Source of the DNA: Escherichia coli
GTDB taxonomy: Bacteria > Pseudomonadota > Gammaproteobacteria > Enterobacterales > Enterobacteriaceae
NCBI RefSeq assembly: GCF_013315695.1
Contig: NZ_CP054353.1
Strand: one strand, 5' to 3'
DNA length: 64,000 bases
The notes under the pieces are model-generated. The model had not been told where the DNA came from. It was given only the letters and a program-made list of their open reading frames with translations, and ran no database searches. How positions within the stretch are numbered: the first letter of the stretch is position 1; the number at the start of each line of letters is the position of its first letter. This document shows, in pieces, positions 14,086 through 56,888 of this stretch. The position numbers were made by a program, and so were the translations under genes.

Positions 14086-16647
14086 TTACACCAGACTCTT
14101 CAAGCGATAAATCCACTCCAGCGCCTGACGCGGAGTCAGTGAATCCGGGTCGAGGTTTTCCAGTGCCTCGACCGCAGGCGAAGTTTCTTCTGGTACGGAC
14201 AGCAAAGACATCTGCGTGCCATCCACTTGCGTAGCGGCGGCGTTCGGCGAAATGCTTTCCAGCTCACGCAGTTTTTGCCGTGCGCGCTTAATCACCTCTT
14301 TTGGCACGCCCGCCAGAGCAGCAACCGCCAGGCCGTAGCTTTTGCTCGCCGCGCCGTCCTGTACGCTGTGCATAAAGGCGATGGTGTCGCCGTGCTCCAG
14401 CGCATCGAGGTGCACGTTAGCCACGCCTTCCATTTTCTCCGGCAGTTGAGTCAGCTCGAAGTAATGGGTGGCAAACAACGTCAATGCCTTAATCTTATTC
14501 GCCAGATTTTCAGCGCACGCCCACGCCAGCGACAGACCATCGTAAGTGGACGTTCCACGCCCAATCTCATCCATCAACACCAGGCTGTACTCCGTGGCGT
14601 TATGCAGAATATTGGCGGTTTCGGTCATCTCCACCATAAAGGTTGAACGCCCGGATGCCAGATCGTCAGCCGCGCCCACACGGGTAAAGATACGGTCAAT
14701 CGGGCCAATCTCGACTTTTTGCGCCGGTACGTAGCTGCCGATATAGGCCATCAGCGCAATCAGTGCGGTCTGGCGCATATAGGTACTTTTACCGCCCATG
14801 TTCGGACCGGTGATGATCAACATGCGACGCTGCGGCGACAGGTTCAGCGGGTTAGCGATAAACGGCTCATTCAGTACCTGTTCAACTACCGGATGGCGAC
14901 CTTCGGTAATGCGAATACCCGGTTTATCAATGAAGGTCGGGCAGGTGTAGTTCAGGGTATAGGCCCGTTCCGCCAGGTTCACCAGTACGTCGAGTTCTGC
15001 CAGTGCGCTCGCGCTCTGTTGCAACGTTTCCAGATGCGGCAACAGCAGGTCGAACAACTCTTCATAAAGCTGTTTTTCCAGTGCCAGTGCTTTACCTTTC
15101 GAGGTGAGTACTTTGTCTTCATACTCTTTTAGCTCTGGAATAATGTAGCGTTCGGCGTTTTTCAGCGTCTGGCGACGCATATAGTTGATGGGTGCCAGAT
15201 GGCTTTGTCCACGGCTGATCTGAATGTAATAACCATGAACCGCGTTAAAGCCGACTTTCAGCGTGTCCAGGCCAGTACGTTCACGCTCGCGGACTTCCAG
15301 ACGCTCCAGATAATCGGTCGCGCCGTCAGCCAGCGCGCGCCACTCATCCAGCTCTTCGTTATAGCCCGGTGCGATAACACCACCGTCGCGTACCAGCACT
15401 GGCGGTGTGTCGATGATTGCTCGCTCCAGCAGATCGCGCAGCTCGGCAAACTCGCCCATTTTTTCACGCAGCGCCTGTACCGGAGCGCTATCGACATTTT
15501 CTAATAGTGCACGCAGCTCCGGCAGTTGCTGGAAAGCGTGACGCATACGGGCCAGATCGCGTGGGCGAGCAGTTCGTAAAGCCAGACGCGCCAGAATACG
15601 TTCCAGGTCGCCGACCTGACGCAGTACCGGCTGCAGCTCGGCGGTGAAATCCTGCAATGCGCCAATAGTTTGCTGGCGCTCAAGCAACACGCGGGTATCG
15701 CGCACTGGCATATGCAGCCAGCGTTTCAGCATACGGCTGCCCATCGGCGTGACGGTGCAGTCGAGCACAGAAGCCAGCGTATTTTCCGCACCACCCGCCA
15801 GATTCTGGGTGATTTCCAGGTTACGACGCGTCGCGGCATCCATAATGATGCTGTCCTGCTCACGTTCCATAGTGATAGAACGAATATGCGGCAGGGTCGT
15901 GCGTTGGGTATCTTTCGCATATTGCAACAGACAACCGGCGGCACAAAGTCCGCGCGGTGCGTTCTCGACGCCAAAACTGACCAGATCGCGAGTGCCAAAT
16001 TGCAGGTTTAACTGCTGGCGCGCGGTGTCGATTTCAAACTCCCACAGCGGGCGACGACGCAGGCCGCGGCGACCTTCAATCAGCGACATCTCGGCGAAAT
16101 CTTCCGCATACAGTAATTCCGCTGGATTCGTACGTTGCAGTTCTGCCGCCATCGTTTCGCGGTCCGCCGGTTCGCTCAGGCGAAAACGACCGGAACTGAT
16201 ATCCAGCGTTGCGTAGCCGAAACCTTTACTGTCCTGCCAGATAGCCGCCAGCAGGTTGTCCTGACGTTCCTGCAACAGTGCTTCATCGCTGATGGTGCCC
16301 GGCGTAACGATACGGACAACTTTGCGCTCGACCGGCCCTTTGCTGGTCGCTGGATCGCCAATTTGTTCGCAGATGGCAACGGACTCGCCCTGGTTCACCA
16401 GTTTGGCGAGGTAGTTTTCCACCGCATGGTAGGGAATCCCCGCCATCGGGATTGGCTCTCCCGCTGAAGCACCGCGTTTGGTCAGTGAAATATCCAGCAG
16501 TTGCGACGCCCGTTTTGCGTCGTCATAAAACAGTTCATAAAAGTCGCCCATCCGGTAAAACAGCAGGATCTCGGGATGCTGGGCTTTCAGCTTGAGATAT
16601 TGCTGCATCATGGGCGTATGGGCATCGAAATTTTCTATTGCACTCAT
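14086..16647 (-). CDS. mutS: DNA mismatch repair protein MutS
   Basis: 853 aa; Walker [10 protein letters not shown]; start [18 protein letters not shown]. Confidence 0.95.
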
Positions 16648-30763: not shown

Positions 30764-31170
30764 GTGAAAAGGTGGTGTTCAGTCAACTGAGCCGTAAATT
30801 TATTGATGAGAACGATGCCACGCCCGCCGAGGCGCAGCAGGTGGTCTATTACAGCCTGGCGATTGGTCACCACCTTGGGGTTATCGATTGCCTGGAAGCG
30901 GCGCTCACCTGCCCGTGGGATGAATATCTGGCATGGATTGCCACTCTGGAGGCGGGCAGCGAAGCCCGCCGCAAAATGGAAGGCGTGCCGAAATATGGTG
31001 AGATCGTCATCGACATTAACCATGTGCCGATGCTGGCCAACGCATTCGATAAAGCCCGGGCAGCGCAAACTTCGCAGCAGAAGGAATGGAGTACAATGCT
31101 GTTAAGTATGCTGCATGATATTCATCAGGAAAACGCCATCTATTTGATGGTGAGGAGACTGCGTGACTGA
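30760..31170 (+). CDS. hycH: formate hydrogenlyase maturation protein HycH
   Basis: 136 aa; conserved operon position. Confidence 0.85.
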
Positions 31171-31630
31171 CGTTTTACTTTGTGTTGGCAATAGCATGAT
31201 GGGCGATGATGGCGCAGGCCCGCTGCTGGCGGAAAAGTGCGCCGCCGCGCCGAAAGGTAACTGGGTGGTGATTGACGGCGGTAGCGCACCGGAAAACGAT
31301 ATCGTCGCCATCCGTGAACTGCGCCCGACACGACTGCTGATTGTCGACGCCACGGATATGGGGCTAAACCCCGGCGAGATCCGCATCATCGACCCGGATG
31401 ACATCGCCGAGATGTTTATGATGACTACCCATAACATGCCGCTGAACTACCTTATCGACCAGTTGAAAGAAGACATTGGCGAAGTGATTTTCCTCGGCAT
31501 CCAGCCGGATATCGTCGGCTTTTACTACCCGATGACCCAGCCGATTAAAGACGCGGTAGAAACCGTTTATCAACGGCTGGAAGGCTGGGAAGGGAATGGC
31601 GGCTTCGCGCAGTTAGCGGTGGAAGAATAA
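31163..31630 (+). CDS. hycI: hydrogenase 3 maturation endopeptidase HycI
   Basis: 155 aa starting [20 protein letters not shown]. Confidence 0.9.
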   Translation: MTDVLLCVGNSMMGDDGAGPLLAEKCAAAPKGNWVVIDGGSAPENDIVAIRELRPTRLLIVDATDMGLNPGEIRIIDPDDIAEMFMMTTHNMPLNYLIDQLKEDIGEVIFLGIQPDIVGFYYPMTQPIKDAVETVYQRLEGWEGNGGFAQLAVEE

Positions 31631-31674
31631 TTCTTCATTAGGGAATTCAGGGAATTGAACATCAAAACAGGGAT

Positions 31675-32428
31675 GTGCGCTTTTTATTGAGCTTAGTGCT
31701 GCCTGCACAGGCCACCAGCTTTACCGAATATCTGCCAATGAGTGACAGCGAATACGCGCAAAAGCGGGCGCTGAAACCTCTCTTAAACATGCCTTATGAT
31801 GCCGAGCAAACCTGGCATTTTAGAAAAGTGGGCGTTGCTGGCGTGACGCTTGAAAAGATGCCAAATGATGATAGTGAATGGCAATTGAACGGTAAAGATC
31901 GCGCCGGTAAATCCTGGTCTGTGCCTGTGGGGGGGGCTGCAAAATATGGCGGGTAATGCGCAACTTTACCGTGCCGATCTTGATCGTAACGGCATTCAGG
32001 ATCTGGTTATCTGGCGGGGTATTTCAGGAAATGGTCTGGCACCTAACGCGTTTTTGATTCTGATGACCTTTAATCAGCAAGGTCGCCCGTGTGTTTTTCA
32101 GTCCGATGGTTTTTATAGCGCAAGTGAAACTGGCATTGATGATTTGCTGGATTTACAAAGGAATGGTCACACGCAATTGCTGGATATGCAGTTTGATTCC
32201 GGTTACTGGATAACCAGTCTGTATCAGGTAAAAGACGCCAAATGGCAGCGTGTTCACGGCTGGTTTGGCAAGTTAAGCTATCCCGCGCTCACGCGTTTTA
32301 CTTATACCCCCAACCGTAAACTCGTCCTCAAACCCATCGCCGGGCGCGACCCGCAAACGGAAGATCTGGCACTGACGCAGAGTTGCTTGATAAAGGGGGA
32401 TGTTCTTGATGGGGTGAACCAGCTCTGA
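31675..32428 (+). pseudogene. Secreted-protein gene with DLxRNG repeats, split by a +1 frameshift in a G8 tract (or phase-variable)
   Basis: ORFs 31675..31956 and 31946..32428 overlap in adjacent frames; both frames are open across 31889..31956, which contains the G8 run 31929..31936; deleting one G fuses them into one ~248-aa ORF with a signal-peptide-like N-terminus. Confidence 0.5.
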
Positions 32429-32444
32429 TGCCAAACGCCAGATT

Positions 32445-32469
32445 GCCCGATGCGCTACGCTTATCGGGC
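32445..32469. repeat. REP-like palindromic unit
   Basis: gcccgatgcgctacgcttatcgggc, an imperfect palindrome of the REP type, between the split ORF and the ascB stop. Confidence 0.5.
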
Positions 32470-32496
32470 CTTCCTGGTTCGTGCGACGGTAGTTGC

Positions 32497-35387
<2,891 letters not shown>

Positions 35388-42491: not shown

Positions 42492-42547
42492 GTCAAAATG
42501 ACTATTAATCAAATGGTCGATATGACAATATCTATAGTCAAATTGAC
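42492..42547. promoter_or_regulatory. Three NorR binding sites (GTCA-N3-TGAC) forming the norR/norV enhancer
   Basis: gtcaaaatgac (42492..42502), gtcgatatgac (42516..42526) and gtcaaattgac (42537..42547) in the divergent norR-norV intergenic region. Confidence 0.75.
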
Positions 42548-56298: not shown

Positions 56299-56301
56299 TT
56301 T

Positions 56302-56378
56302 GCATCCGTAGCTCAGCTGGATAGAGTACTCGGCTACGAACCGAGCGGTCGGAGGTTCGAATCCTCCCGGATGCACCA
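56302..56378 (+). tRNA. argV: tRNA-Arg (ACG), copy 1
   Basis: 77 nt gcatccgtagctcagctggatagagtactcggctACGaaccgag...gatgcacca; symbol assignment among the four copies is by K-12 order only. Confidence 0.9.
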
Positions 56379-56440
56379 TCTCTTACTTGATATGGCTTTA
56401 GTAGCGGTATCAATATCAGCAGTAAAATAAATTTCCCGAT

Positions 56441-56517
56441 GCATCCGTAGCTCAGCTGGATAGAGTACTCGGCTACGAACCGAGCGGTCGGAGGTTCGAA
56501 TCCTCCCGGATGCACCA
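56441..56517 (+). tRNA. argY: tRNA-Arg (ACG), copy 2
   Basis: Identical 77-nt tRNA; 139-bp repeat period. Confidence 0.9.
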
Positions 56518-56579
56518 TCTCTTACTTGATATGGCTTTAGTAGCGGTATCAATATCAGCAGTAAAATAAATTTCCCGAT

Positions 56580-56656
56580 GCATCCGTAGCTCAGCTGGAT
56601 AGAGTACTCGGCTACGAACCGAGCGGTCGGAGGTTCGAATCCTCCCGGATGCACCA
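56580..56656 (+). tRNA. argZ: tRNA-Arg (ACG), copy 3
   Basis: Identical 77-nt tRNA; identical 62-bp spacer. Confidence 0.9.
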
Positions 56657-56718
56657 TCTCTTACTTGATATGGCTTTAGTAGCGGTATCAATATCAGCAG
56701 TAAAATAAATTTCCCGAT

Positions 56719-56795
56719 GCATCCGTAGCTCAGCTGGATAGAGTACTCGGCTACGAACCGAGCGGTCGGAGGTTCGAATCCTCCCGGATGCACCA
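56719..56795 (+). tRNA. argQ: tRNA-Arg (ACG), copy 4
   Basis: Identical 77-nt tRNA. Confidence 0.9.
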
Positions 56796-56888
56796 TATTC
56801 TCCGAAATCTTCAGCAATGAAGGTATCGAAGAGGTAGCGATATTAACCGCACGCCAGCAGCGGCCCGAAGGGCGAACGCCAGTGAGTC

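Follow-up and report, generated by a model that had tools for sequence, protein, structure and literature searches.

The 64,000-nucleotide stretch of E. coli DNA analyzed here (contig NZ_CP054353.1; hereafter, the window) carries a broken gene between hycI and the convergent ascB (Table 1). The gene is represented by two open reading frames (ORFs) that lie on the same strand and overlap by 11 nt. In the second frame, a stop occupies 31886-31888 and reading is open from 31889 onward; the first frame closes with the TAA at 31954-31956. Both are open through 31889..31956, exactly where an earlier note on this DNA, made from the sequence alone, had placed them. The 93-aa product of the first ORF ends in an out-of-frame tail, AAKYGG. 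The note held a run of eight Gs (G8) responsible for the split, and indeed, when one G is deleted, a single ORF is restored whose product is identical to WP_001571792.1 of E. coli AF3. The repaired ORF is thus a single one, as expected, and its length is 250 aa and not the ~248 aa first estimated. In the intact allele, the run has seven Gs (G7) and is read through the codons GTG GGG GGG CTG. Both DL(D/Q)RNGxxxL motifs that had been described in the product are present. No insertion sequence (IS), integrase, or direct repeats flanking the gene were found in the window, and an Rfam scan of window positions 30 to 34 kb gave no match. Annotators should join the two ORFs and label them as a single frameshifted pseudogene ("periplasmic or exported protein," downstream of hycI).

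Table 1. Features of the hycI-ascB region, window positions 31163-33933
Feature	Position	Strand	Remark
hycI	31163-31630	+	upstream neighbor of the broken gene
Spacer from hycI stop codon to gene, 44 nt	31631..31674	+	alternative starts TTG 31655 and ATG 31673
Overlapping start codons ATGTG, then T5 run (31681-31685)	31673..31685	+	
Whole frameshifted gene	31675..32428	+	orthologue of WP_001571792.1 ("periplasmic or exported protein")
N-terminal fragment ORF, GTG start, 93 aa	31675..31956	+	signal-like N terminus and first beta-strands
G8 homopolymer, +1 frameshift site	31929..31936	+	
C-terminal fragment ORF, ATG start, 160 aa	31946..32428	+	most of the beta domain, without export signal
DLDRNGIQD, residues 101-109 of repaired protein	31976..32002	+	
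DLQRNGHTQ, residues 159-167, second, degenerate copy of the loop motif	32150..32176	+	
Last ~32 bp of gene, kept in K-12	32397..32428	+	right edge of K-12 deletion
REP-like palindrome GCCCGAT...ATCGGGC, between gene and convergent ascB	32445..32469	.	common to K-12
ascB	32497-33933	-	convergent with the broken gene

The closest complete genome is that of AF3 (NZ_OZ547117), a blood isolate from the United Kingdom, which carries the G7 form, annotated as a 250-aa hypothetical protein. Over 64 kb, the window matches AF3 at ~99.93%, with 17 single-nucleotide polymorphisms (SNPs). Relative to AF3, no 1-nt indel other than the extra G occurs in these 64 kb, and between 23.3 and 35.2 kb, that is, in the ~12 kb around the site, the two sequences differ in nothing else. 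Ten other runs of at least seven bases in the window are unchanged relative to AF3. With a single 1-nt indel and ten unchanged runs, this assembly is not generally prone to homopolymer error, and the comparison suggests that the extra G is either a very recent event or an isolated error. G8 is the sole run of G or C of seven or more in the window. From base composition alone, a rough calculation by hand gives about one G8 run per 64 kb, so the run is not improbable in itself; what matters is its exact coincidence with the break in frame. We ruled out a mutS mutator background, since mutS (14086-16647, minus strand) is intact and identical to that of AF3, and there is no obvious mismatch-repair mutator.

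The remaining differences from AF3 lie elsewhere in the window. At ~10141 there is a 24-bp indel: a tandem duplication at the otnK/otnC junction, GCTCATGATAAAAACTCTCTTTGG, is present in AF3 and missing from the window. About 30 nt at 42502-42535, in the norR-norV intergenic region by coordinates, do not align to AF3. Several SNPs and a 2-nt indel fall in the tandem tRNA-Arg repeats at 56300-56800, where the units cross-align; copy-to-copy variation or conversion is a possible source of these differences. Going by the AF3 annotation, the mutS-rpoS polymorphic region, with its genes for non-oxidative hydroxyarylic acid decarboxylase, should also lie within the window.

A second run, of Ts, affects the start of the gene. 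In alleles with six Ts (T6), the TTG at 31655 or the ATG at 31673 is in frame, giving proteins of 257 or 251 aa with a signal-like N terminus of 20 or 14 residues, MNIKTGMCAFLLSLVLPAQA followed by TS. In the T5 allele of the window, the TTG and ATG frames close after ~10 codons, and just the GTG at 31675 is left; the resulting 250-aa protein has a 13-residue N terminus, MRFLLSLVLPAQA. T5 and T6 are both found on near-identical flanks. Either length of the T run keeps an ORF, and the N terminus changes. Homologues have hydrophobic N termini of 20 to 30 residues followed by a conserved YLPL motif, and the protein is probably exported. The earlier note had seen in it a signal-like, FG-GAP-like protein; the signal-like N termini of the homologues, the database name, and weak matches of relatives to PF13517 and PF01839 all agree with this. 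The stretch from hycI to the gene has neither a terminator-like site nor a convincing promoter-like site, which makes it plausible that the gene is co-transcribed with the hyc operon.

The segment had been taken for a strain-specific insert, missing from K-12. K-12 is indeed without the gene, and its hycI-ascB spacer (strain BW25113) is just 158 bp. It is made up of ~17 nt from directly behind hycI, the final ~32 bp of the gene (GGGATGTTCTTGATGGGGTGAACCAGCTCTGA), the REP-like palindrome seen in the window, and one additional REP copy. Since K-12 retains the end of the gene and the downstream REP-like element, it is a deletion derivative; the deletion is ~750 bp long, about window positions 31647-32396, and the K-12 spacer should be read as a deletion scar. 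The claim of an insert also fails on the distribution of the gene: E. albertii and another enterobacterium (L021) have it at the same place behind hycI, and so do most E. coli strains, whole or in part. In E. albertii, it is directly after hycI and is followed by hydN-hypF; in L021, it is again directly after hycI. An AFDB entry from Salmonella enterica, A0A633HV03 (343 aa), is HycI fused to a protein of this family, which implies the same adjacency in Salmonella, where the proteins are 269 aa long, ~70% identical, and named "periplasmic or exported protein." A partial match to the gene is present in 4,247 of 5,426 complete E. coli genomes, and 1,461 have at least 80% of it. A genomic islet or insertion is therefore refuted by the presence of the gene in outgroups, its 3' remnant in K-12, and the missing mobility signatures in the window.

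Values of dN/dS (Nei-Gojobori) are 0.17 to 0.29 between E. coli alleles and E. albertii, with the E. coli-E. albertii value at about 0.2, and these ratios indicate that the gene has long been under purifying selection. Strain 18AR0845 has only a 61-aa remnant of it and is missing the asc operon as well, and other truncated forms are common in E. coli. The region is a decaying ancestral locus whose gene has repeatedly been lost in E. coli, and not an acquisition. The window's copy has what is expected of a frameshift pseudogene: the intact allele (AF3, G7) differs from it by just the frameshifting indel, and the intact gene is under purifying selection by the ratios given above and syntenic after hycI in several genera.

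The two edges of the gene vary in other ways. In other E. coli strains (among the loci L002, L003, L013, and L014), the DNA separating the gene from ascB contains a higB/higA-type toxin-antitoxin pair or just higA; NCTC9088 has IS621 there in addition, and L021 has SymE and ParDE modules at this site. Window positions 32429-32496 are without any toxin-antitoxin module. The site appears to be a hot spot for small addiction modules. On the hycI side, one locus (L007; GCA_974490385.1) has a 2-nt insertion (GG) that abolishes the stop codon of hycI, lengthening HycI to 165 aa; the junction of hycI and the gene seems prone to read-through fusions or errors. We found nothing relevant in the literature on hycI/ascB/higB or on STM2844, a presumed locus tag.

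In a collection of 15 billion proteins, the intact protein is recorded on 755 contigs in its 250-aa form (G7/T5), on 767 in its 251-aa form (G7/T6), and on 687 in its 257-aa form with a TTG start (G7/T6), the last two being different gene calls of the same allele whose loci may partly overlap. The exact sequence of the 160-aa C-terminal fragment, which any frameshift can produce, is on at least 33 contigs. N-terminal fragments are on 5 + 1 contigs for G8/T6, 5 for G5/T5, and 4 for G5/T6. Neither the window's own 93-aa N-terminal fragment (G8/T5) nor any in-frame G4 or G10 variant is found in this collection. For the G7-lineage allele, there are ~1,500 intact and ~33 frameshifted contigs (G5, G6, and G8), which puts ~2% out of frame. 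G5, G6, G7, and G8 therefore all occur in nature, with the intact G7 allele by far the commoner state.

We fetched eight frameshifted loci, two with G5 (L004 and L008), three with G6 (L005, L006, and L007), and three with G8 (L009, L010, and L011). They are on three flanking haplotypes, ~100 to 120 SNPs apart per 6.5 kb, and half of them match the haplotype of the window within 0 to 3 SNPs. Runs of G5, G6, G7, and G8 are found on flanks that are 0 to 6 SNPs apart per 6.5 kb, and the sole difference between L004 and the window is G5 versus G8. The other indels in the 6.5 kb of these eight loci are in the T5/T6 run; L007 alone has, besides, the 2-nt insertion at the hycI stop codon. Judging from these flanks, the run is probably a genuine slippage hot spot, with at least 6 to 8 independent events. 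Two properties of contingency loci are present here: the tract lies within the ORF and sets its frame (G7 in; G5, G6, and G8 out), and its length is polymorphic among close isolates.

Two loci with the interrupted allele and a broken frame (L027 and L029) served as a control. They have several homopolymer deletions, and their tract defects look like platform error; part of the public tract variation could be of this kind. That all of it is platform error we rejected for L004 to L011, in which the G and T runs are the only homopolymer indels in 6.5 kb.

The uninterrupted run belongs to one allele. In allele MS20674, the same codons are GTG GGG GTG CTG (VGVL), and VGVL is also found in E. albertii and cryptic-clade proteins; a divergent E. 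coli allele has GTG GGT ATG CTG, in which the run reads GGGTATG. Given GGGGGTG/VGVL in MS20674, E. albertii, and the cryptic clades, pure G7 (VGGL) is the derived state, reached by one T>G change. Of 883 complete genomes with this stretch, 21 carry pure G7 with identical flanks, about 490 fit GGGGGTG, and 367 have the divergent allele. Short-query searches for G8, G6, and G5 gave no exact match in 5,426 complete RefSeq E. coli genomes (the five ">=99%" records that each search also returned are partial-coverage matches). Conservation of the tract across alleles, lineages, and orthologues, a further property of contingency loci, is not seen.

What the gene encodes is a member of a small, little-named family. 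The repaired protein has no match in Pfam, NCBIfam, PADLOC, or PHROGs, and for the E. coli protein there is none in Pfam even at E<=10. HMMER, run over the full set of 1.84 billion cluster representatives, found 253 relatives (about 250 clusters at 50% identity); those that can be named or placed are largely from environmental metagenomes, for example, of Acidobacteriota. Most are 330 to 390 aa long; in addition to a hydrophobic N terminus, the YLPL motif, and the core that the E. coli protein also has, they carry a further C-terminal domain of ~100 aa ending in PExLWA. The Escherichia and Salmonella proteins are without this domain, which almost all the 330- to 390-aa relatives have. The enterobacterial gene would thus be an old, C-terminally truncated form that is still under purifying selection; the dN/dS of ~0.2 between E. 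coli and E. albertii argues that the short form is maintained by selection.

When 47 family members were aligned, D101, D109, and P203 were invariant, and L102, D103, and G106 were nearly so. By our own reading, DLDRNGIQD fits the integrin-type FG-GAP calcium-loop pattern DxDxNGxxD, and it qualifies as a predicted calcium loop of the DxDxDGxxD kind. The second copy is degenerate in E. coli; the family consensus at this loop (residues 159-167) is DLxxDGRAE. Matches to PF13517 reach E<=1e-3 in 3 of the 47 members and E<=0.1 in 16; for PF01839, the corresponding numbers are 1 and 5. Neither repeat model matches the E. coli protein. Some relatives are named "VCBS repeat-containing" or "FG-GAP repeat" in UniProt.

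Fold prediction on the repaired protein gave a confident, all-beta model, which does not form a closed multi-blade beta-propeller. Foldseek found no match in the PDB at E<=1e-3. A PDB profile search gave marginal matches (E of 0.3 to 0.6) to integrin alpha-V FG-GAP loops and to XAC2610; the weak match to the integrin loops is in the DLDRNGIQD stretch. Features in common with FG-GAP/VCBS proteins (PF01839 and PF13517; integrin alpha propeller blades) are the DxDxNGxxD motif, blade-like sheets in an all-beta fold, and, for family members, weak matches to Pfam and PDB profiles. Unlike them, the protein has ~250 aa, two motif copies, and no seven-bladed propeller, and in E. coli it is below every Pfam threshold.

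In the model, the fold weakly resembles those of the periplasmic peptidoglycan-hydrolase inhibitors PliI and XAC2610, and many generic propeller blades have similar Z scores in the fold comparison. Their structures are 3OD9 for PliI-Ah and 4QTQ for X-Tfi XAC2610. PliI, XAC2610, and Tsi1 make up a propeller-like fold class of such inhibitors (PMC10933484). This likeness is a functional lead, a rather doubtful one, and it does not amount to membership. In the contexts examined, including those of distant homologues, no linkage to a cognate hydrolase or effector gene was found. The neighbors of family genes are hyc genes, toxin-antitoxin modules, or unrelated genes, and distant homologues have no conserved neighbors and hence offer no functional clue. 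Taken by its motifs and N termini, the family is FG-GAP-like, probably exported, and uncharacterized.

We think it probable that the G8 allele is a slippage pseudogene, an accidental and recurrent inactivation of a dispensable gene, and not an evolved switch. In this reading, the segment is an ancestral gene of enterobacteria from the end of the hyc (formate hydrogenlyase) operon, and its product is an all-beta, FG-GAP-like protein of ~250 aa that is probably exported. A T>G substitution (Val to Gly) in one lineage of E. coli alleles would have changed GGGGGTG into an uninterrupted G7, a run prone to strand slippage at replication, and in the window strain one G would have been gained, turning G7 into G8. 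Translation would then stop after 93 codons and the other 160 would be left without an export signal, which would make this a recent null allele, that is, a pseudogene. In other isolates, the same run would independently have become G5, G6, or G8, and such independent events point to a mutational hot spot. The opposite slip could in principle revert the break. The youth of the tract, its absence from most alleles, and the ~98% of carriers that are in frame all suggest an accident rather than an evolved switch. Low-level rescue of the G8 allele by transcriptional or ribosomal slippage may occur.

A competing explanation is a homopolymer sequencing or assembly error: in the strain itself, the run would be G7 and the gene intact. 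No G/C run in the window is longer than G8, and errors are most frequent in runs of this kind; the complete RefSeq genomes with the pure tract have G7 in 21 of 21 cases, the G8+T5 N-terminal fragment is missing from the 15-billion-protein collection, and some public assemblies have homopolymer errors at multiple sites. We nevertheless consider an error unlikely: there is no other 1-nt indel relative to AF3 in 64 kb despite ten other runs of at least seven, and G8 is found in three independent assemblies, on three flanking haplotypes, with no indel besides the T5/T6 run. If the G8 is real, the allele could still be expressed, by RNA polymerase slippage, by a +1 ribosomal shift, or with the fragments acting separately. 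Both frames are open across 31889-31956, and the G run, 9 nt before the ATG at 31946, is a possible Shine-Dalgarno-like element for re-initiation. However, a conserved frameshift-stimulating signal was not found at the site, no single out-of-frame length is kept (there are G5, G6, and G8), the intact allele, G7, is the predominant one, and a C-terminal fragment lacking a signal peptide would remain cytoplasmic; continued expression is hardly credible.

The earlier note called the tract a classic slipped-strand switch, which overstates the case for a run that is derived in one allele and out of frame in ~2% of its carriers. The corresponding explanation is a contingency locus: selection would have favored the G tract as a reversible ON/OFF switch, working by slipped-strand mispairing, and the protein switched would be periplasmic or surface-exposed. 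It would account for four tract lengths (G5 to G8) on nearly identical backgrounds, produced by at least 6 to 8 events among ~1,500 carriers, and for a second variable run (T5/T6) at the start codon, and the product, being probably exported, is of the usual class of phase-variable genes. Against it, most E. coli alleles, E. albertii, and the cryptic clades have an interrupted tract; OFF contigs number ~33 versus ~1,500 ON; the 15-billion-protein collection has no in-frame G4 or G10 variants; many lineages have lost the gene by plain deletion; and mutS is intact in the window. In addition, contingency tracts are typically longer than G7, and mismatch repair is active in E. coli. A selected switch is therefore decidedly unlikely. 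Its most elaborate version, in which the G run and the T5/T6 run together form a working switch of an exported, FG-GAP-like protein of the PliI/XAC2610 class that is co-expressed with hyc and guards the cell wall, is very improbable. If it were true, the switched protein would counter attack by lysozyme-like or secreted peptidoglycan hydrolases, at a cost such as phage or immune recognition, and this would be a rare instance of phase variation in a mismatch-repair-proficient enterobacterium.

The slippage pseudogene that we favor resembles known hot spots. In Mycobacterium tuberculosis, a run of 7 Cs in glpK is a frameshift hot spot at which the gene is recurrently and reversibly inactivated (bioRxiv 10.1101/717272), and homopolymeric tracts contribute to microevolution in Bordetella pertussis (PMC1891110). 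As in these cases, a coding run of 7 or 8 G/C varies in length among close relatives and toggles the frame, and the intact form predominates. Unlike them, the run here comes from a recent substitution in one allele and is not common to orthologues. With the poly-G phase-variable contingency loci of Neisseria, Haemophilus, and Campylobacter, for example, pgtA (PMC2193922), it shares a poly-G tract inside the ORF of a probably exported protein and frame-dependent expression. Tracts of those loci are conserved within species, with ON and OFF at comparable frequencies, whereas the tract described here is G7, interrupted in most alleles, and OFF in ~2% of carriers. Contingency tracts in those genera are also usually longer.

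An event of this kind is ordinary, the population pattern is modestly interesting, and the protein family is unexplored. The uncharacterized family presents a minor puzzle: it is adjacent to hyc in enterobacteria, is under purifying selection, and yields a confident structure model. As for the run itself, one substitution would have been enough to create a slippage hot spot, from which null alleles then arose repeatedly in a species whose mismatch repair is active.
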